DNA of 64,000 nucleotides from a phage. The stretch lies in NCBI GenBank assembly GCA_025677605.1, contig GCA_025677605.1_4110.1. One strand, written 5' to 3'. Position 1 is the first letter of the stretch, and each line of letters starts with the position of its first letter. Below, in pieces: positions 4,773-15,134 of this stretch. Made by a program: the position numbers and the translations under genes. The notes beneath the pieces were generated by a model. The model ran no database searches and was not told where the DNA came from. It worked only from the letters and a program-made list of their open reading frames with translations.

Positions 4773-6191
4773 TTAGCCAAGTGATTCAATAATACTGTTT
4801 GAGAAGACCTCAACTGCACTATCACGAATTTCTAAGATACGAGTATAATCGTCACAAGTGTTTTTGTCAAATCTAAATTCAATAAACACTGGTAAGAATA
4901 GTGATGGTTCACCAGTACGCTTATCATATACTACGTCATTGCACTCAATTGTAACAACTTTGCCAATGAGTTCTTGCATTCTTTCCCAAATGGTTTTAAA
5001 TGTCCATTCAGCATCTTTCTCTTTAATGCCTGTTCCTACGCTTACTTTTAGTGTACCACAAGCACTTTCCAGTTGTAAAGAACCAAGCATACCTTTACGC
5101 TTACCTTCACCTTCATTGAAACCAACAATACGCAAGTCCAGTTGCATTTTCAATTTCATTTTCAACTGCTTAGGAGAAGTATGAGATTTCCAGATACCAT
5201 CTTCACATTTCAGTACTGAACCTTCTTCACCTGAACTCATGAGTTCAGAGTTGTAAGCAAAGGCTTCTTTGAGATCCTTCACCTTACGATATCCAACCAT
5301 ACGCACGAATTCACTACCTAATGCATTGATTGCACCTTCAAGAATCTCGCGACGTTCCTTACGTTTCACATCCCAGATACCAGCACAATAAGCATCATAT
5401 GGCACTACATCCCAGAGAACGAATACAGTACGCATTGCTTCGTTTTGGGTGATAGTATCCTTACCAGCTTTCTGAATGATGCCGTTACCAGTTGTACGTG
5501 GAAGAATAGTTTCCCCATCAGTATCCAGTACTAAACCCTCGCCCATAAAGACTACACCACTACTGAAACGTTCATCTGTACTTTGAATATGATGAGCAAG
5601 TCCAGCCATTTCAGCATCACGACAACCGAGGAAGTCATAAATCTTACCATTACGGGAAGTGGATGTTAATGATGCATTGATAACAACGTGGTTCAAGTAC
5701 TGACCATCCATCTTAACTTCAGCAACGGCATAACCATAATCTTTGAAGTTGATGTTCTTAGCAGTTTTCTTGTCAATCAATGAACAACGCATATAAGGTT
5801 CATCTTTAATAAAGCCTTTACCGAATACATCATTACAGTTCTTTTCCTGAATACCACAATCAAGGTTCTTCGTGAGCATTTTACGGAGAACTTCCTGATC
5901 ATCTTCAGATACGGAACCCAGTACTGAAGCAATGAAATCACGCCCCGTATTACCCGTCACACCACGCTTATAGATGCATTCTAGCTTATCAATAGCTTCA
6001 TCTAACGTCATATGTTGATACACGTCAGCAGCGTCTGGTAGCTTCTTATAGCCACTTACGATAGTAGGGTCTAGCGTATATTTCAGTACTTTTTTGAGTG
6101 TTTCATTGTTTTTGTTTTCTTCAAGGATTGCTTTCTTACCAAGTGTACTTGAAGTCTTTTTGATTTGTTCCAGAATTGCTAAAATGCTCAT
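4773..6191 (-). CDS. 30: ATP-dependent DNA ligase (T4 gp30-like)
   Basis: N-terminus ILAILEQIKKTSSTLGKKAILEENKNNETLKK resembles T4 DNA ligase N-terminus as I recall it; KxDG adenylation motif in VAEVKMDGQ; 472 aa. Confidence 0.9.
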   Translation of the reverse strand: MSILAILEQIKKTSSTLGKKAILEENKNNETLKKVLKYTLDPTIVSGYKKLPDAADVYQHMTLDEAIDKLECIYKRGVTGNTGRDFIASVLGSVSEDDQEVLRKMLTKNLDCGIQEKNCNDVFGKGFIKDEPYMRCSLIDKKTAKNINFKDYGYAVAEVKMDGQYLNHVVINASLTSTSRNGKIYDFLGCRDAEMAGLAHHIQSTDERFSSGVVFMGEGLVLDTDGETILPRTTGNGIIQKAGKDTITQNEAMRTVFVLWDVVPYDAYCAGIWDVKRKERREILEGAINALGSEFVRMVGYRKVKDLKEAFAYNSELMSSGEEGSVLKCEDGIWKSHTSPKQLKMKLKMQLDLRIVGFNEGEGKRKGMLGSLQLESACGTLKVSVGTGIKEKDAEWTFKTIWERMQELIGKVVTIECNDVVYDKRTGEPSLFLPVFIEFRFDKNTCDDYTRILEIRDSAVEVFSNSIIESLG

Positions 6192-8326: not shown

Positions 8327-9070
8327 TTACCTTTTGAATCGACTAAATGAATATTCGTCTTTTTCTTTACGCAAATAACGCATCTTACCACCTTGTGGGG
8401 TAGCAATAGTCAAATCACCAGTAAGAAACTGACTGTCAATCCAGATACGGTTACCATAAATGAGGGGATCAAACACGGCAGTATGCCCACTAAGTACATA
8501 ATCTACGTTGGTAATACGTGATGCATTAAAGACGTTGTTGGCTTTACAGAAATCAAATGTCTTTCTGTCCCATAGGCATGACTCAATTGTATCACTGGAC
8601 ATTGATTTTGTCCCAGTAATGAACTTATTCCAGTCAGTGTGCTTAAGGTCTACACTTGCATGTACGAGGCCAATCTTGAGTCCTCTGTGATTGATTTGGA
8701 TAATCATAGGTAGCTGGTTCAAGTACTGACGGAAGAATTCCACTCCTGATACACCAACTTCTTCCAGGAACTTATCGCCCCCATTCTGTGTCCAGCAATG
8801 ATACCAGTCACGATGAGTTGCAGAATCAATACACATCGATTCATGATTGCCCATGATCATATATCGATTCTCAGCGAATAAAAACTCAAACAAAAGGTGA
8901 GCACTTTGCTCACCTCTGTCAATTAAATCGCCTAAACTGAATACATAATCTTCAGGAGTAATACCAAATTCTTTCTTGGTATGTTCCCATAGTTTTGCAT
9001 TACCGTGAATGTCTCCTACTATATACAAATCTTTTTCATCAGGAACTGTTACTTCTAAGAAATGTTTCAT
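8327..9070 (-). CDS. Ser/Thr protein phosphatase-family metallophosphatase
   Basis: Motifs GDIHGN, GDLIDRGEQS, GNHE typical of PPP-family / lambda-phosphatase-like enzymes. Confidence 0.8.
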   Translation of the reverse strand: MKHFLEVTVPDEKDLYIVGDIHGNAKLWEHTKKEFGITPEDYVFSLGDLIDRGEQSAHLLFEFLFAENRYMIMGNHESMCIDSATHRDWYHCWTQNGGDKFLEEVGVSGVEFFRQYLNQLPMIIQINHRGLKIGLVHASVDLKHTDWNKFITGTKSMSSDTIESCLWDRKTFDFCKANNVFNASRITNVDYVLSGHTAVFDPLIYGNRIWIDSQFLTGDLTIATPQGGKMRYLRKEKDEYSFSRFKR

Positions 9071-9321
9071 TGTTCTTTAATCCATATAATTTTATCATAG
9101 GTGACAACTTGAGTATTGGCAATTTGGTCATTAACATAGCAATCTACGTAATATCGCACATCACCATAATATGTTCCCATATCTCTTATGCATATTTTTT
9201 GCCAACCTCTGGAGTGTTTAAGAAGAATTTCTTGACCAATATATTTGTGCTTAGCACGTTGGACAAAATCATCAGATAACGATTGTAACATCTTTAACTG
9301 TTCAATTTCCGTCTTTGTCAT
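9067..9321 (-). CDS. hypothetical protein (84 aa)
   Basis: Minus-strand ORF; ATGA-type overlap. Confidence 0.5.
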   Translation of the reverse strand: MTKTEIEQLKMLQSLSDDFVQRAKHKYIGQEILLKHSRGWQKICIRDMGTYYGDVRYYVDCYVNDQIANTQVVTYDKIIWIKEQ

Positions 9322-9544
9322 GTTTCTTCTTCTTGAATTTTGTTAGTGTATCGTAAAAATCTTTACAGATTGAAATGAAAAGATACACCAACGACACAGG
9401 CCACAGTACTGATAACATAGAGCAGGTACTAATATTAATCATTGTGGTAGGGGTATCTTTAAAAGAACCCCAATTGATGATAAGAAAAGTACTGATAAAT
9501 GTACTCAGTACTCCTACACCATACAAAGCAAAAAATAAAATCAT
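9302..9544 (-). CDS. small membrane protein (2 predicted TM helices)
   Basis: Hydrophobic segments LFFALYGVGVLSTFISTFLII and MLSVLWPVSLVYLFISI. Confidence 0.5.
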   Translation of the reverse strand: MILFFALYGVGVLSTFISTFLIINWGSFKDTPTTMINISTCSMLSVLWPVSLVYLFISICKDFYDTLTKFKKKKHDKDGN

Positions 9545-9889
9545 TTATTCCTCTTCTATTAGTTCTAAACGATCTAAACGGTAAGTGAATCCGTACCATT
9601 CAGAACTTTTTGGATTTTCATATTCAACATCAACATAGATTGATGAATTCTTTACTCGCAACAAAGTAATAAACATAACTGTATTTTCGTTGATATGAGA
9701 AGCTTCATCATCACAATAAATCCAGTCAGAATCTACTTCATCCTCCTTAGCCTTATTGATGTGGTCAATATACTCTTGAGTGAATTTTACTTTTTTGCCT
9801 ATTAATTTATTTTTTAAGGTACTAACGAATTCTGATTGAAGATCAAGGAGAGATTCGAAGTACCTTAGTTCAGATGATAACGGAACCAT
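9545..9889 (-). CDS. hypothetical protein (114 aa)
   Basis: Minus-strand ORF. Confidence 0.5.
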   Translation of the reverse strand: MVPLSSELRYFESLLDLQSEFVSTLKNKLIGKKVKFTQEYIDHINKAKEDEVDSDWIYCDDEASHINENTVMFITLLRVKNSSIYVDVEYENPKSSEWYGFTYRLDRLELIEEE

Positions 9890-10506
9890 TAATCACAGCT
9901 TCCTGAACTTGAGCTTGAACTATCACAAGAGCCACTGTCATAAGAGGAAGATGAGTCGCTATAGGATGAAGTACTGATAATTGCGGCAGTTGTTGCTGCT
10001 GTCAGTAGAACAGTGCTTGTACCATCATCAGTACTGGTAGTACTGGAAGATGCTTCCTTATCAGTTTTAGTGCTTTTGCGAGTTGTACTGGTTTTTTTGG
10101 TATTTTTAGTGCTAGTCTTGCGACCTTTTGTTTTCTTAGAAGTTTTTGCTTTTGTTTTAGTTGTTGATGCTTTTGGTTGTGGTTCTTCTTTTACTGGAAC
10201 TTCTTCAACTTCTTCCTGAACTGATTTAACTTCTTCAGCCGCACCATCAATGTAAACGTCATCAACAGTTAAAGTTGGCGTATATCCTTCAAAAACTGGT
10301 ACATCATGTACTGCTTTATCACGATTATCGTCAATGACTGGTGTCATGTCACGGCGACCCATAATAATTAGTAAACCTAGTTCTAGTACTGGCGTAAAAA
10401 TAATACCAAATACTGTGTATGCCAGTGCATTACGGTTGTAAGATTTTGCCAAAAACCAACCAATAACCAGACCAAGTACGTATAGTACGTATAGTGCATA
10501 AATCAT
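9889..10506 (-). CDS. membrane-anchored protein with Ser/Thr/Lys-rich low-complexity tail
   Basis: N-terminal TM helices followed by acidic linker and TSKKTKGRKTSTKNTKK...SSSSYDSGSCDSSSSSSGSCD tail. Confidence 0.55.
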   Translation of the reverse strand: MIYALYVLYVLGLVIGWFLAKSYNRNALAYTVFGIIFTPVLELGLLIIMGRRDMTPVIDDNRDKAVHDVPVFEGYTPTLTVDDVYIDGAAEEVKSVQEEVEEVPVKEEPQPKASTTKTKAKTSKKTKGRKTSTKNTKKTSTTRKSTKTDKEASSSTTSTDDGTSTVLLTAATTAAIISTSSYSDSSSSYDSGSCDSSSSSSGSCD

Positions 10507-10802
10507 AGTATGACTCCTTTAATTACAATTATTTTACCGATATCTTCGATATAATTAGAAAAGTGATAGTTGTCTTGGTATATCAACCACGCACCAAACC
10601 CATCTACTATTTCGATTATATTAATTTCTTCAATTGGATTATTTTTACATTCAGCAACTAACGGACAAAAATAATCATTTAAAATTTGAAGATATATTTT
10701 ACTTACCTCTAACCATTCAGTTCTATTATAGTATTTGTCAAAAGTAAAAGTTTCCCACAGAAGTTTATATGTTTCTTCTGCTTCATATAATATTTTAATC
10801 AT
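10503..10802 (-). CDS. hypothetical protein (99 aa)
   Basis: Minus-strand ORF, ATGA overlap. Confidence 0.5.
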   Translation of the reverse strand: MIKILYEAEETYKLLWETFTFDKYYNRTEWLEVSKIYLQILNDYFCPLVAECKNNPIEEINIIEIVDGFGAWLIYQDNYHFSNYIEDIGKIIVIKGVIL

Positions 10803-11101
10803 ATACTAATAATTTCGTTAGTGGATACTACTCTTCCGTACATCAATGGGATTACGTACACATTTGGAACCGAAATCCCCACTGATTTAATTGTATCACA
10901 TAGCTCATTATTTGTCCTGGCATTTTTGAACTTTATTTCTCTACCTTCAAATGCATCAATAACAGATTGTGAATATGAATCCATTAACACCCTGAAGTTA
11001 ATCATCATAGTTGGGTAGTCTAGTATCCCCTCAAGTCGCATATCATGGCACGTTCTGAATAGCATAATGTATGTTTTATGACAAAGTAATAGTTCATTCA
11101 T
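10799..11101 (-). CDS. hypothetical protein (100 aa)
   Basis: Minus-strand ORF, ATGA overlap. Confidence 0.5.
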   Translation of the reverse strand: MNELLLCHKTYIMLFRTCHDMRLEGILDYPTMMINFRVLMDSYSQSVIDAFEGREIKFKNARTNNELCDTIKSVGISVPNVYVIPLMYGRVVSTNEIISI

Positions 11102-11415
11102 ATGAAAATCTCATCCAGATACAATGTAGTACTGGGTCTGTCTGTATTAACATCAGTACTGCAATCAATCATCAGACCGTAGTCAGTACCCCATATTTGC
11201 TTGATATAAAGGTCATAATCACGACTGGTATTTGCTTCATATACTACATTATTATAAAAAAGATCAGTCAATTCGTAATAGAAATCTTTAACACGTTTAT
11301 TCACCTCTTTTCTGTACATATCCATCTCAACGTTATCAATGTACAATAACCATTTCAGACAATAATTAAAATGATTCTCGTACATTATTAATTTATTATA
11401 TTCTTCTTGTGTCAT
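11098..11415 (-). CDS. hypothetical protein (105 aa)
   Basis: Minus-strand ORF, ATGA overlap. Confidence 0.5.
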   Translation of the reverse strand: MTQEEYNKLIMYENHFNYCLKWLLYIDNVEMDMYRKEVNKRVKDFYYELTDLFYNNVVYEANTSRDYDLYIKQIWGTDYGLMIDCSTDVNTDRPSTTLYLDEIFI

Positions 11416-11735
11416 AGTTCAATCTCTTCTATGTACATACTATTTTCTATGTACGGATCAAATGGGTGTATTTTATAATCAACGAATATTCCATATCCTG
11501 TACCAAAAACACCATGAATATATACAATATCATCTTCGCACTTAATAGTTCTGTACTTAAATCTCTTTTCCAATGATTCATATATTTCACTAATTATACA
11601 GTTAATATAGTTATATAACTGATGGTTTGATTTAGTGCATTGTTCTTCAAGAAGTATATTATATAGAATCAGAAAGTATCTGTTTATATAATTCAAATAA
11701 TCTAATTCACTTTTTGTTATTAACGTGTTGGTCAT
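11412..11735 (-). CDS. hypothetical protein (107 aa)
   Basis: Minus-strand ORF. Confidence 0.5.
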   Translation of the reverse strand: MTNTLITKSELDYLNYINRYFLILYNILLEEQCTKSNHQLYNYINCIISEIYESLEKRFKYRTIKCEDDIVYIHGVFGTGYGIFVDYKIHPFDPYIENSMYIEEIEL

Positions 11736-12123
11736 ATATAATCTCTATCTCATTTGAATCGTAATATGCTTTATGGGTTCTTGTTTTATTTTGGTATTTT
11801 ATTTTGGTTTTGATAAAATATATAACCTTTTTCCATTCATAATACACGTACTCAATTTTACCATAGTCACCAGTACTAAGTAATACTTTTTTACCTTTGT
11901 ACAGTTCTTGTAATTGTGTTTTATAATCCTCAAGAAATCTACTTTCAAAAATTTTTACATCACTTTCCATCACAAGGTCGATAAGAATAGCAAGATGCCT
12001 ATCCAATAATAGTAAGTTCTCTTGATCGTATTGCATAATATCTTTGTCCATTATCAGATTTTGCCGTATACATGTATGCCCCATAAGAATATGATATGTT
12101 GGTAATTTCAACTTCTCTTCCAA
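11707..12123 (-). CDS. hypothetical protein (start uncertain)
   Basis: Minus-strand ORF; overlaps upstream ORF by ~125 nt so true start is probably an internal Met. Confidence 0.4.
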   Translation of the reverse strand: MEEKLKLPTYHILMGHTCIRQNLIMDKDIMQYDQENLLLLDRHLAILIDLVMESDVKIFESRFLEDYKTQLQELYKGKKVLLSTGDYGKIEYVYYEWKKVIYFIKTKIKYQNKTRTHKAYYDSNEIEIIYDQHVNNKK

Positions 12124-12370
12124 GATATATAGCTTTTGTTCCTACGTATTTTTTAAGCAGTGGTGTAGTTAGATCAAGGAGATAGGTTTCAAGGAAATCG
12201 GAAATATCATAACATGGGTCTACTAATTGAGTATGAAAGAAACGACGAGTATCTCTTATCAATTTCACTTGCCTGTCATACAATTCTAATCTCGTCATAT
12301 GTTGCATCCCATAAAAAACCTGCTCGTTCGCACCTGTACAAAATATTACCATTCCAGGTCGCCACTTCAA
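11999..12370 (-). CDS. hypothetical protein (start uncertain)
   Basis: Minus-strand ORF; overlaps upstream ORF, probable internal start. Confidence 0.4.
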   Translation of the reverse strand: MKWRPGMVIFCTGANEQVFYGMQHMTRLELYDRQVKLIRDTRRFFHTQLVDPCYDISDFLETYLLDLTTPLLKKYVGTKAIYLGREVEITNISYSYGAYMYTAKSDNGQRYYAIRSRELTIIG

Positions 12371-12557
12371 TAATTGTCCATGTTAAATCGGTATCATCTA
12401 GAACATTGACACCAAAAACCACTTTTGATAATTCGTTCTCGTAATTATCCATCAGTACTGATAATGATGTTAGTAATCTTTCATCGGATTCTGAAAAATA
12501 TAAACTACGTAAAATACGATAATGATAATAAAAAAACTTCAATGAATCATTATTCAT
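12276..12557 (-). CDS. hypothetical protein (93 aa)
   Basis: Minus-strand ORF. Confidence 0.45.
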   Translation of the reverse strand: MNNDSLKFFYYHYRILRSLYFSESDERLLTSLSVLMDNYENELSKVVFGVNVLDDTDLTWTIIEVATWNGNILYRCERAGFLWDATYDEIRIV

Positions 12558-12859
12558 GAAAAAATAAACCTCGAATATATTCTTGAGCGAAATGTTATAT
12601 TACTTGGGATATATTTGCAACAAAGGTATGGATATCCGTAAGTGCTGGATTCGATTTTGGTAATAATAACATCACTACCTCGATATTTGCACTGAACATT
12701 TGAGTATTTTTTATTCAAAAAGTCAAGATATTCATCATGAAAATGAATGAGTTGTTCTTCAAACTTGTATTGTTTTTCATTATACATTGCAAGAGATTCT
12801 TCTTTAAGAAGATATAATGTTTTCAATAATGCTTGGAATTCATTCGTATTCATATCCAT
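12554..12859 (-). CDS. hypothetical protein (101 aa)
   Basis: Minus-strand ORF, ATGA overlap. Confidence 0.5.
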   Translation of the reverse strand: MDMNTNEFQALLKTLYLLKEESLAMYNEKQYKFEEQLIHFHDEYLDFLNKKYSNVQCKYRGSDVIITKIESSTYGYPYLCCKYIPSNITFRSRIYSRFIFS

Positions 12860-13106
12860 CCACAGTAGTTATTGTTGCTCGCGTTGTGAATTGGTATCTA
12901 TGCCCATACATATCAACGCCAGATACAACTATATTATTGTTAGTATCAAGATATACTGAATCAATTTTAATAATGCGTTCCCAGTCACTTGTATCATAGA
13001 CACATTTAACATATGTATCTTTATATTTTTCTGATAGTTGCTTTACTAAATTTTTCAGTACTTGAATATGTGAATTAACAAATTGGAAATCTATATTAAT
13101 ATTCAT
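12840..13106 (-). CDS. hypothetical protein (88 aa)
   Basis: Minus-strand ORF. Confidence 0.5.
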   Translation of the reverse strand: MNINIDFQFVNSHIQVLKNLVKQLSEKYKDTYVKCVYDTSDWERIIKIDSVYLDTNNNIVVSGVDMYGHRYQFTTRATITTVDGYEYE

Positions 13107-13108
13107 GT

Positions 13109-13369
13109 TTATTCATCCGTTATAGATAATTCAGAGATAATTTTTACCATATGTTCACCCAAGAAATTGTTAGATCCAGTTAGGAATATTTTAGCTTTTA
13201 TTTTAATTTCATCACTAAGTGGAGAATAATAAATCTCTACAATTTGTCCACGTCTCCCAGTTGATAAACATGTAGCAATTTTGCCTATGTACTTGATTCG
13301 CAACTCTTCCATTAGGGAGTGCAAAACCAACTGACATTGTTTGAAATGTACATCATAACTATTATCCAT
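13109..13369 (-). CDS. hypothetical small protein (86 aa), YIGK-type
   Basis: Contains RIKYIGKIATC segment shared with small-protein family at 20.2-22.0 kb. Confidence 0.5.
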   Translation of the reverse strand: MDNSYDVHFKQCQLVLHSLMEELRIKYIGKIATCLSTGRRGQIVEIYYSPLSDEIKIKAKIFLTGSNNFLGEHMVKIISELSITDE

Positions 13370-13384
13370 TATATCACCTAAATT

Positions 13385-13412
13385 AAAAGAAAAGGGATCA
13401 GTACTGATCCCT
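13385..13412 (-). terminator. rho-independent terminator downstream of pseT
   Basis: Perfect palindrome AGGGATCAGT/ACTGATCCCT at 13393-13412 followed on minus strand by U-rich run. Confidence 0.6.
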
Positions 13413-13421
13413 TTGTAATAA

Positions 13422-14354
13422 TCAAAATAGTCCAGGTTCCACCTGAAATACTTTCAAGCCTAGTAGCTTACGCCACATGAATACAACGGCGGCCCTGTCA
13501 TCAAATACTTTCTTAACATCGTAATGATTAACAACGTTATTCATATACAACTCGAATTTGACAACATCATCAGGACGTTTATCATCGATAGCTCGCATTA
13601 ACAATACATCGTAGGGAATGCCCCAATTCTTAAGCCACTGTTCAGTATCAGCACGACACCCTTCAGTACGCCCACTCATGACGATTACCTTACGCTTATG
13701 GAAAACAGCCTCAGCAATGACAGACAGAATTACTTCTTCATCTGGTGTATCCTGAAGGACAGTACTTTCATCAAACGGGTTACGTCCCCACTTATGAGCA
13801 AGAGTACCGTCGATATCAACAATGATAGCAGCTTCACGTGCATTACCATAGTAACCAATGTGTAATGCCTTTCTATAATAGTACGTATCTGCCATTGTGT
13901 CAATGATATCATATTGAACTGAACGCTCACGCTGGAGGTTATATTTCTTACAAAGTTTTACGAACTCTTTAATCTTAAAGAATTCATGAACATCTGCACC
14001 ACGGTCTTCATTAGGCACAAAATCATCATAGAAGTTCTTTTCTTTGTAATCATAACCATTATCTTTAGCCCAACGTTTCCATTCATCACGAAAACCTTGT
14101 TTCAGGTTCGTATCGGACACAATAATATTCCATCCATTCGCTGCTGCGGCGTTTGCTGCACTGAACTGTTGATTAGTTACGTACTTCTCGTTCGCATCAG
14201 TGAATTTATAAGCATCATGTGACCCAGCCATAGACTCTCGAATATCATCACGGTTGATGTTGATAGTCTTGGACTTTGCTTTTTTAATTTCTTGCACTGC
14301 CCACGTGGTTTTACCACATCCTGGCAATCCAACTGTTAGTGTAATAGTTGGCAT
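13422..14354 (-). CDS. pseT: polynucleotide 5'-kinase / 3'-phosphatase
   Basis: P-loop GLPGCGKTT at N-terminus; HAD phosphatase DxDGT motif (IVDIDGTLA); length 310 aa and layout match T4 Pnk as I recall it. Confidence 0.9.
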   Translation of the reverse strand: MPTITLTVGLPGCGKTTWAVQEIKKAKSKTININRDDIRESMAGSHDAYKFTDANEKYVTNQQFSAANAAAANGWNIIVSDTNLKQGFRDEWKRWAKDNGYDYKEKNFYDDFVPNEDRGADVHEFFKIKEFVKLCKKYNLQRERSVQYDIIDTMADTYYYRKALHIGYYGNAREAAIIVDIDGTLAHKWGRNPFDESTVLQDTPDEEVILSVIAEAVFHKRKVIVMSGRTEGCRADTEQWLKNWGIPYDVLLMRAIDDKRPDDVVKFELYMNNVVNHYDVKKVFDDRAAVVFMWRKLLGLKVFQVEPGLF

Positions 14355-14666
14355 TTAATCCTCAATAAATTTCACATTCTTTAGATTGTACCACGAAAAA
14401 CGTTCATGTCGTGTGTTGTGTCCTATAGTTACTTCTACATAGCACTCGTCAGAAATGTGATGAGTAACTACATGAAATTTAACATTAACATCACTAATGA
14501 TAGTTTCGAACCATGTTTTAGTGTTGTAATCCCAGCATTCAACTTTCTTACCAATGAGTGATTTCTTGTATTGTGTAATCATATCATGAACAATTTCAGA
14601 AATAGTATTAGTTAATTCAATTTCTGCATTCATTAAATTATTAAGTTCTTTTAATGCTTTATTCAT
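14355..14666 (-). CDS. hypothetical small protein (103 aa)
   Basis: Minus-strand ORF; KKSLIGKKV segment. Confidence 0.5.
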   Translation of the reverse strand: MNKALKELNNLMNAEIELTNTISEIVHDMITQYKKSLIGKKVECWDYNTKTWFETIISDVNVKFHVVTHHISDECYVEVTIGHNTRHERFSWYNLKNVKFIED

Positions 14667-14938
14667 TAGATTACCTCAATAATATCATCAATTGAGATAC
14701 CAATACAATTATCGACAGTGATATTCAATGTAAAATCATCATCTACATATACATTAGTGATTTTACCATAAACATTCATCCCATCATAAGATGATTTATA
14801 ACGTACTCTTTTGTTAATATATTTTGCACGTAGAGTATTACTCTCACGGTACAATATATCCGTCAAACATTCTGATAGTACTTTATAATATAACAAATCA
14901 CTTGAATGATTGTTTTTCATTGTATTTCCCAACTCCAA
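14666..14938 (-). CDS. hypothetical small protein (90 aa)
   Basis: Minus-strand ORF. Confidence 0.5.
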   Translation of the reverse strand: MELGNTMKNNHSSDLLYYKVLSECLTDILYRESNTLRAKYINKRVRYKSSYDGMNVYGKITNVYVDDDFTLNITVDNCIGISIDDIIEVI

Positions 14939-15134
14939 ATCGCTTGGAGATTTTTACAAGTACAGCTTCATCACAACGAATACTAGCAGTGTCATTGGAT
15001 GAACTGTACTTTAAGGGGGTCCACTGTAATTGAGATTCTTCAAGGAACTTGATACATCTGAAGTAATCTTTCAGAGAAAGAAACTTAACCACTGACATAT
15101 CCTGAACAATACTATGCTGAACTTCAACTTTCAT
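14898..15134 (-). CDS. hypothetical small protein (78 aa)
   Basis: Minus-strand ORF. Confidence 0.45.
   Translation of the reverse strand: MKVEVQHSIVQDMSVVKFLSLKDYFRCIKFLEESQLQWTPLKYSSSNDTASIRCDEAVLVKISKRFGVGKYNEKQSFK

Follow-up and report, generated by a model that had tools for sequence, protein, structure and literature searches.

An open reading frame (ORF) at 9889–10506 on the minus strand of a 64,000-nucleotide stretch of phage DNA (contig GCA_025677605.1_4110.1 of NCBI GenBank assembly GCA_025677605.1; hereafter the window) encodes a protein of 205 residues (ATG start, TAA stop at 9889–9891) in which an N-terminal two-helix hydrophobic hairpin is joined, through a long charged spacer, to a Ser-rich C-terminal tail. 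The new point to emerge from comparison with its homologues is that the Ser-rich end is a conserved, portable C-terminal tag and not a linker. The protein, which is the orthologue of A4_442 of Escherichia phage A4, gp451 of 121Q, and gp618 of K64-1, is of the membrane-tethered, disordered viral kind with a short linear motif, in a variant without prior characterization; no paper in the literature library searched gives an account of the hairpin-tail family. We propose, tentatively, that it is a non-virion accessory protein of Rak2-like jumbo phages which, tethered to the membrane and disordered, would present its C-terminal peptide to a host or phage partner. An initial annotation of the window had delimited this ORF exactly, the strand to be read as minus; its anatomical description is essentially right, and its functional suggestions are mostly unsupported.

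The Ser-rich C-terminal tail

The tail (residues 179–205; 9892–9972, minus strand) is Ser-rich and acidic, with 17 Ser/Thr (63%), four Asp, and two Cys among its 27 residues, and ends in SSSYDSGSCDSSSSSSGSCD. Its last 20 residues are two copies of a decapeptide, SSSYDSGSCD and SSSSSSGSCD, the second of which ends at the terminal carboxylate. The core motif, Ser188-Tyr-Asp-Ser-Gly-Ser193 (9928–9945, minus strand), contains four residues (Tyr189, Asp190, Ser191, and Ser193) that are invariant among the orthologues, whose conserved C terminus can be written S-Y-D-S-x-S...S(5-7)-(G)-S-(C)-D-COOH. The Ser-rich ending is more than chance: among all stop-to-stop ORFs of at least 40 residues in the six frames of the whole 64-kb window, the 205-residue ORF is the only one with Ser at 60% or more of its last 25 residues.

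Orthologues are 20–40% identical overall, with sequence kept only in the hairpin and at the extreme C terminus, and within Asteriusvirus there are three allele groups that are ~40% identical to one another. Across these alleles the last 10–18 residues are invariant, or nearly so, despite synonymous change in five to nine of the last ten codons. Between the window and the JNE01 allele eight of these ten codons differ, including Ser switches between TCN and AGY codons, and none of the amino acids does; between the window and a metagenomic relative (L008) the differences amount to seven codons and two amino acids. Change of codons with retention of the encoded residues clearly points to purifying selection acting on the amino-acid sequence of the tail. 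The segment that had initially been likened to a linker region is, on this comparison, the extreme C terminus and the best-conserved part of the protein, and its motif is found on unrelated proteins.

The tail is also present on proteins that lack the hairpin. Searching with a profile built on the last ~100 residues brought up 60 clusters. Fifty-one of them end in CD, and in 56 the motif Y[DE]S[GSY]S stands 8–25 residues from the C terminus (median 11). Since a tail profile was used to collect the clusters, these figures are in part circular, which does not hold for the diversity of the N termini to which the tails are attached. Thirty-four of these N termini are of the Vequintavirinae type, six are of the hairpin type, and the remaining 20 include coiled coils, single transmembrane (TM) anchors, a different two-TM hairpin, basic N termini, and a small globular domain. 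In most carriers a short uncharged patch rich in Ala, Gly, Thr, Met, and Tyr, flanked by acidic residues, lies upstream of the tail, and Arg/Lys-rich regions precede the tail in other carriers as well as in the window protein. These comparisons indicate that the tail is an independent, portable C-terminal module carried by many unrelated phage proteins.

Tails of this type are contained in PHROGs 13005, 13684, 14698, 10669, and 17348, all without assigned function. The window protein has no match to the Pfam family DUF7206 (PF23836) at E ≤ 1; the C-terminal parts of its relatives P0010, P0012, and P0013 score 18.7–20.7 bits against a gathering threshold of 25.6 bits, and precomputed PF23836.2 matches exist for P0010, P0012, P0013, P0052, and P0158. 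By these scores the window tail is related to DUF7206 and is not a formal member of it. Searches (tblastn) of named phages with tail carriers P0077, P0179, and P0192 found nothing, and P0181 gave a match only through its N-terminal domain (gp48 of Bcep176). The genomic contexts of P0204 and P0188 were small-ORF arrays only, with no recurrent partner gene.

The hairpin, the charged spacer, and the locus

The two TM helices of the initial annotation are borne out by hydropathy and by structure prediction. Residues 1–20 and 31–50 are hydrophobic, with Kyte-Doolittle means over 19 residues peaking at 2.2, and AlphaFold2, with a family alignment as input, places helices at residues 2–22 and 27–52 (pLDDT 60–74). 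The resulting hairpin (residues 1–52; 10351–10506, minus strand) would anchor the 205-residue protein in the inner membrane. The remainder of the chain (residues 53–205) has pLDDT values below 50 and no predicted secondary structure, and is predicted to be disordered, in agreement with the long low-complexity C-terminal region described at the outset.

The hairpin, like the tail, is an independent portable module that occurs in many other phage proteins. When 1.84 billion representative proteins were searched with a profile of the family, there were 143 hits, among which only six clusters were full length; more than 130 clusters share the hairpin only, in proteins of 48–432 residues (mostly below 250) that consist of the hairpin alone or add zinc ribbons (at least 21 of 141), SHOCT domains (18), or helical domains. 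The family consensus is G..A...NR(N/S)..GY..LS...SP(L/V).....LL..G, and Ala20, Arg25, and Pro39 are each at least 90% conserved among the 141 aligned hairpin sequences, Arg25 lying with Asn24 in the turn (10432–10437, minus strand). Across the allele groups and distant relatives the positions kept are Gly12, Ala20, Asn24-Arg25, Tyr30, Pro39, and Gly50. The window hairpin matches PHROG 9201 over residues 6–52 (E = 3e-6), and with PHROGs 25625 and 8436, likewise without assigned function, this PHROG covers a family that is not in Pfam; by sequence, then, the 205-residue protein carries an NRN-hairpin of the PHROG 9201/25625 family. Two hairpin-only relatives, P0019 and P0020, match TIGR04265 at positions 9–111 (E = 2e-4 and 9e-4); the hairpin hidden Markov model (HMM) scores only 1.0 bit against E. 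coli ClsA, Pfam PLDc_N is not matched, and a relation of the hairpin to the N-terminal PLDc_N domain of cardiolipin synthases is unproven.

Between the hairpin and the tail the chain is organized by charge. A variable acidic linker (residues 53–88, with nine Asp/Glu and two Lys/Arg; 10243–10350, minus strand) is followed by an acidic Glu/Val-rich block (residues 89–108, AAEEVKSVQEEVEEVPVKEE; 10183–10242, minus strand) in which eight of the 20 residues are Asp/Glu and which answers to the acidic linker noted initially. The basic Lys/Thr/Ser tract that comes next (residues 109–150; 10057–10182, minus strand) has 16 Lys/Arg and 18 Ser/Thr in 42 residues, its basic charge being kept among orthologues and its sequence not, and nearer the tail lies an uncharged patch rich in Ala, Thr, Ile, and Leu (residues 166–178, VLLTAATTAAIIS; 9973–10011, minus strand), with acidic residues on either side and a counterpart in most tail-module proteins. 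In orthologues the neutral hairpin is followed by an acidic block, then by a basic one (+9 to +14), and last by the acidic Ser-rich tail, with a net charge near zero.

The Lys/Thr/Ser tract had been taken for ~90 residues of repeats; it spans ~42 residues and is a compositional bias, not a true tandem repeat. In the low-complexity C-terminal part of the ORF, TRF detected only two 9-nucleotide duplications, and two further short arrays lie in the hairpin-coding part. One 9-nucleotide tandem duplication, CCAGTACTA/CCAGTACTG (10029–10046, minus strand), is present as a single copy in phage A4, giving a three-residue indel. The acidic block contains a twofold GAAGAAGTT duplication (10198–10215) and a GCG codon (10240–10242), both of which are sites of in-frame indels among close relatives. 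The variation of tract length across isolates raised as a check in the initial annotation does occur: near-identical phages encode proteins of 205, 201, and 202 residues that differ by small in-frame indels, and these map to the CCAGTACTN duplication, the GAAGAAGTT duplication, and the one GCG codon. Such changes are ordinary slippage and do not mark a hypervariable tract.

The ORF is a genuine gene, with a strong Shine-Dalgarno sequence, start and stop codons coupled to those of its neighbours, and syntenic orthologues. The Shine-Dalgarno sequence, AAGGAG (10514–10519, minus strand), read from the sequence, stands 7 nucleotides before the ATG; this ATG (10504–10506) overlaps the TGA of the upstream ORF (10503–10802) as ATGA, and the TAA overlaps the ATG of the downstream ORF (9545–9889) as TAATG. 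The overlaps on both sides make the gene part of a tightly coupled minus-strand array of small ORFs.

The window comes from an Asteriusvirus jumbo coliphage: over 3 kb around the gene it shares 98.7% identity with Escherichia phage A4 (also Asteriusvirus, 355 kb), in which A4_442 is annotated as a hypothetical protein. With the JNE01 allele as query, tblastn located the gene in 36 records from jumbo phages of Escherichia and Salmonella, including every Asteriusvirus record matched. All the orthologue loci inspected (A4, JNE01, Turkey5, 121Q, PBECO4, EC.P1, and UE-S1) have the same gene order, with polynucleotide kinase/RNA ligase on one side of the hairpin-tail gene and a Ser/Thr phosphatase, a DnaJ-like gene, and DNA ligase on the other, and this order is retained in metagenomic relatives (L008, L017, and L018) at only 20–30% identity. 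Synteny extends to the RaK2-like Klebsiella phage K64-1, whose gp618 (“membrane protein”) is the immediate upstream neighbour of the phosphatase gp619. The full-length match to PHROG 29057 (E = 2.6e-18; residues 7–205 on profile positions 9–209 of 209) identifies the protein, at the level of sequence profiles, as a member of that family, which has no assigned function. Neither the whole protein nor its hairpin, scanned separately, matched any Pfam, NCBIfam, or PADLOC family above threshold, the PADLOC anti-phage defence models yielding no family at E ≤ 0.1, and PDB sequence searches with both profiles gave no meaningful match, the best (Mycoplasma Mgp-operon protein 3, E = 0.08) being low-complexity noise. 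The phAPEC6 orthologue, gp366c, is absent from the text of that phage's virion proteome paper (PMC7247149), from which the 205-residue protein is probably non-structural and non-virion.

The surrounding array (9067–15134, minus strand) is densely packed with ORFs of ~80–140 residues whose starts and stops overlap. Several pairs are weakly alike (blastp E = 0.001–0.007), for example 11098–11415 and 11412–11735, which have a common ...GT(D/G)YG(L/I)...D end, and the ORFs may constitute a diverged paralogue family. Two genes downstream, an 80-residue ORF (9302–9544, minus strand) has two hydrophobic segments, a KKKKHDKDGN tail, and a very weak holin-family match only (phrog_920, E = 0.093). Beyond it, 8327–9070 (minus strand) encodes a lambda-type NinI-like Ser/Thr phosphatase (Pfam Metallophos, E = 2.1e-14; PHROG 246, E = 1.6e-65). 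A terminator-like hairpin with a 10-bp stem and a T-run (13391–13414, minus strand) directly follows the polynucleotide kinase gene (13422–14354), and a terminator is annotated at the equivalent spot in the UE-S1 record; the transcription unit holding the 205-residue gene may begin there. A 68-residue antisense ORF (10013–10219, plus strand), rich in Val, Leu, and Phe, runs against the direction of the array and mirrors the low-complexity Lys/Thr/Ser tract, and is almost certainly no more than a by-product of low complexity on the coding strand. In T4-like RB49, the hairpin-family gene RB49p211 (L020:2001–2345) directly follows the DNA ligase gp30 and HNH endonuclease genes, and in the jumbo phages the hairpin-tail gene is likewise within a few kb of DNA ligase (4773–6191, minus strand, in the window), which looks like a recurrent placement of hairpin-family genes in a ligase/RNA-repair early region.

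Membrane topology and candidate roles

The tail is probably cytoplasmic, the hairpin being N-in/C-in, an orientation that we hold with moderate confidence over a periplasmic one. Many tail carriers have neither a TM segment nor a signal peptide (P0077, P0179, P0181, P0192, and P0204). In the single-TM carriers P0172 and P0186, RRMRAR or KKRKK directly follows the TM segment, a positive-inside bias that puts the tail on the cytoplasmic side, and P0189, with its own hairpin, an Arg-rich N terminus, and an Arg-rich C-terminal flank, is unambiguously N-in/C-in. We count in the same direction the zinc ribbons that directly follow helix 2 in hairpin relatives, the arrangement of P0144 (hairpin, basic loop, third TM segment, then a peptidoglycan-binding domain), and, in the window protein itself, the Arg-Arg pair directly after helix 2 and the +14 basic tract. 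The occurrence of the tail on non-exported and on cytoplasm-facing proteins leaves the O-glycosylation suggested in the initial annotation without support.

With this orientation, the hairpin would tether the 205-residue protein at the inner membrane, and the ~125-residue charged spacer (residues 53–178, with the uncharged patch at its end) would act as a flexible arm. The Ser-rich C-terminal peptide, together with the patch upstream of it, may form a short linear docking or modification motif through which the tail would engage one conserved cytoplasmic partner, either an Enterobacterales host factor or a phage enzyme, and this partner could be recruited, sequestered, or regulated at the membrane during infection.

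Several points weigh against this proposal, the partial circularity of the motif statistics among them. The docking-motif step is drawn solely from the conservation of the tail and its portability. In some orthologues (P0014 and P0016) the uncharged patch is faint or missing, and the cysteines are not universal, being lacking in P0007, P0014, and P0015. As to orientation, the hairpin turn is rich in Lys/Arg (mean 2.3 in nine residues), and the 15 residues after helix 2 contain on average 2.9 Lys/Arg and 2.6 Asp/Glu, with a family Lys/Arg bias of ~0. In the relatives P0078 and P0133 the hairpin is preceded by a signal peptide and an ecto-domain, an order that implies a turn-in/C-out arrangement. 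The near-zero Lys/Arg bias and conflicting fusions in the NRN-hairpin family (P0078, P0133, P0144, and P0139) form a pattern typical of dual-topology small membrane proteins.

An envelope factor that faces the periplasm, in keeping with the initial annotation, with an N-out/turn-in/C-out hairpin, helix 2 as signal anchor, a Glu/Val/Pro/Lys-rich spacer crossing the periplasm as the TonB spacer does, and a Ser-rich end contacting the peptidoglycan or outer membrane, for example in superinfection exclusion, is unlikely. It would accommodate the Lys/Arg-rich turn, which suits a cytoplasmic loop, and the signal peptides and ecto-domains of P0078 and P0133; it is also consistent with weak, sub-threshold matches to TonB spacers (TonB_N in P0014, E = 0.0033, 18.5 versus 33 bits; NF008082 in the window protein, E = 0.086) and with the two cysteines of most alleles, which could form a disulfide. 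However, positive residues (RR, ER, EK, KK) lie right after helix 2, the +9 to +14 basic tract would need to be exported, zinc ribbons are fused after the hairpin, and proteins that lack any export signal bear the same tail, as do single-TM proteins, there on the cytoplasmic face. There is, moreover, no TonB_C domain and no relationship to Imm, and several orthologues lack the cysteines.

Rather less likely is a phospho-switch, in which the poly-Ser tail would be a multi-site substrate of a host or phage kinase, its state set by the linked NinI-like phosphatase so as to tune binding of the tail to the basic tract or to a partner. Phosphorylation of the tail, 60% Ser with acidic residues, is possible from its composition, and the phosphatase (8327–9070 in the window) is encoded within zero to five genes downstream of the hairpin-tail gene in every relative examined, and adjacent to it in K64-1. 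The whole region is syntenic, however, so this linkage is not independent evidence; no kinase was identified, and Vequintavirinae tail carriers show no phosphatase within 2.6–3 kb. The invariant Tyr-Asp-Ser-Gly-Ser core and terminal CD suggest specific recognition in place of bulk phosphorylation.

The alternation of charge along the spacer could also mean that the basic tract binds an anionic ligand, either an acidic phospholipid or a nucleic acid, against which the Ser/Asp tail, itself acidic, would compete within the molecule; the acidic tails of Hfq, SSB, T7 gp2.5, and HMGB1 offer a comparison. Binding of such ligands by the tract is possible as judged from its charge, the basic block (+9 to +14) precedes the acidic tail in all orthologues at near-zero net charge, and Arg/Lys-rich regions precede the tail in other carriers. 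Nonetheless, Pfam, NCBIfam, and PDB sequence searches detected no nucleic-acid-binding domain, the tail has only four acidic residues, and the invariant YDSGS...CD would be left unexplained; we regard this explanation as quite improbable.

Very improbable is a role as a class II-like holin, antiholin, or lysis-timing protein, to which the likeness lies in the architecture of two TM helices and a charged C terminus, as in small two-TM holins with charged tails. The lysis-timing role put forward in the initial annotation finds no holin or lysis match for the 205-residue protein in PHROG or Pfam, and its gene does not lie in a lysis cassette. Within ±4 kb, in A4 and the other loci, the genes are those for polynucleotide kinase (RNA repair), ligases, a phosphatase, and a DnaJ-like protein, together with small ORFs, and in A4 neither an endolysin nor a spanin gene is among them. 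A chain of 205 residues with a 150-residue disordered tail is atypical of holins, as are the fusions of hairpin relatives to zinc ribbons and SHOCT domains. That slippage and drift have produced the tail as low-complexity sequence without a function, as the in-frame indels at 9-nucleotide duplications between near-identical phages might suggest, is contradicted, on comparative grounds, by the near-invariance of the last 10–18 residues despite synonymous codon change and by the presence of the same motif at the same distance from the C terminus in unrelated proteins. Heterocyclization of the Ser/Cys tail (lanthipeptide- or microcin B17-like), a phosphopantetheinyl transferase “DS” site, a C-terminal degron, and a Ser-tRNA-sensing leader peptide were also considered and found no support.

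Returning to the membrane-tethered tail as a presented peptide, a wider form of the proposal would be that the ...SSYDSGS-(S)n-(C)D-COOH tail and its patch constitute an unrecognized portable signal of Enterobacterales phages, for sorting, docking, or post-translational modification, by which early proteins in their dozens, unrelated to one another and either TM-anchored, anchored by an amphipathic helix, or soluble, are directed to a single host hub or modifying enzyme; we consider this doubtful. Large phages carry hundreds of small “hypothetical” early genes, and the informative part of the present one is a peptide of ~25 residues and not a fold. A tag of this portable kind is usually a sign of one shared cellular receptor, for instance a protease, modifying enzyme, localization factor, or hub protein. 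Should the tail be such a signal, its partner would be a new common point of phage takeover, and one peptide pull-down could assign a target to a whole orphan set in phages of Asteriusvirus, Alcyoneusvirus, and Vequintavirinae, among them several under development for therapy. Should it not be, the 205-residue protein would be an ordinary conserved hypothetical membrane protein.

Comparison with known systems

T4 Imm is, like the window protein, a small early inner-membrane protein with two hydrophobic helices, but it has no disordered tail. Membership of the Imm family was rejected, there being no match to Imm_superinfect (PF14373) at E ≤ 10 and a score of only −5.7 bits (E = 1) for the hairpin HMM against T4 Imm, and the superinfection exclusion suggested initially gains nothing from this quarter.

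TonB, in the periplasm, and ZipA, in the cytoplasm, combine an anchor with a spacer that is acidic then basic, or rich in Pro, Glu, Lys, and Val, and with a functional element at the far end. The window protein resembles these tethers in outline, except that its functional end would be a peptide of ~25 residues and not a folded domain. We do not claim homology to ZipA, and membership of the TonB family was rejected: TonB_C is absent, and the spacer matches are sub-threshold and compositional only (18.5 versus 33 bits; E = 0.086).

In the class IIb microcins (MccE492, MccM, and MccH47) a Ser/Gly-rich C terminus (SSSGS...) is a portable tag for a modifying enzyme, a parallel of use as a lead only. 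The microcin tags end in Ser, belong to peptides that are secreted by way of a double-glycine leader, and depend on mceC/I/J-type genes. We rejected the window tail as such a tag; the protein has a TM hairpin at its start and CD as its last residues, and no mceC/I/J-like genes are annotated nearby.

Membrane proteins with a TPM domain (E. coli YgcG, L016:9712–10584; P0088) have a TM segment, a charged region, an Ala-rich patch, and a cytoplasmic C terminus rich in Ser, Gly, and Asp. The YgcG tail is, however, Gly-rich and ends in ...GGGGASGRW, without the YDSGS...CD of the phage tail. The tail of P0199 (SSSYDSGSSSSSSSDSGSFGGGDSGSF) is intermediate between the phage and TPM types. A distant relation between the phage tail module and the TPM/YgcG tail is unproven, and the likeness may be compositional only.

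The nearest relatives are those that share one or both of the modules. PHROG 29057 orthologues (A4_442, 121Q gp451, phAPEC6 gp366c, and K64-1 gp618) are alike in hairpin, charge blocks, tail, and gene position, the Lys/Thr/Ser version of the basic tract in the window and A4 allele being unusually long by comparison with the others. NRN-hairpin small proteins of phages and bacteria (PHROGs 9201, 25625, and 8436; for example, RB49p211) have the same A...NR(N/S)..GY...SP...G signature as the window hairpin, but in place of a Ser-rich tail they carry nothing, zinc ribbons, SHOCT domains, or helical domains. Conversely, the Vequintavirinae tail proteins (phiTE_004, A54_257 of A5-4, gp042 of CR8, ADU18_0150 of PBES02, and POP15_044; PHROGs 13005 and 13684, DUF7206-like), which belong to an unrelated phage family and genomic context and have a short amphipathic MFKKLxxWVKxLF N terminus where the window protein has its TM hairpin, share with it the basic stretch, an uncharged patch (here rich in Ala, Gly, and Tyr), and a tail with SSYDSGS followed by ...SSSCD-COOH.

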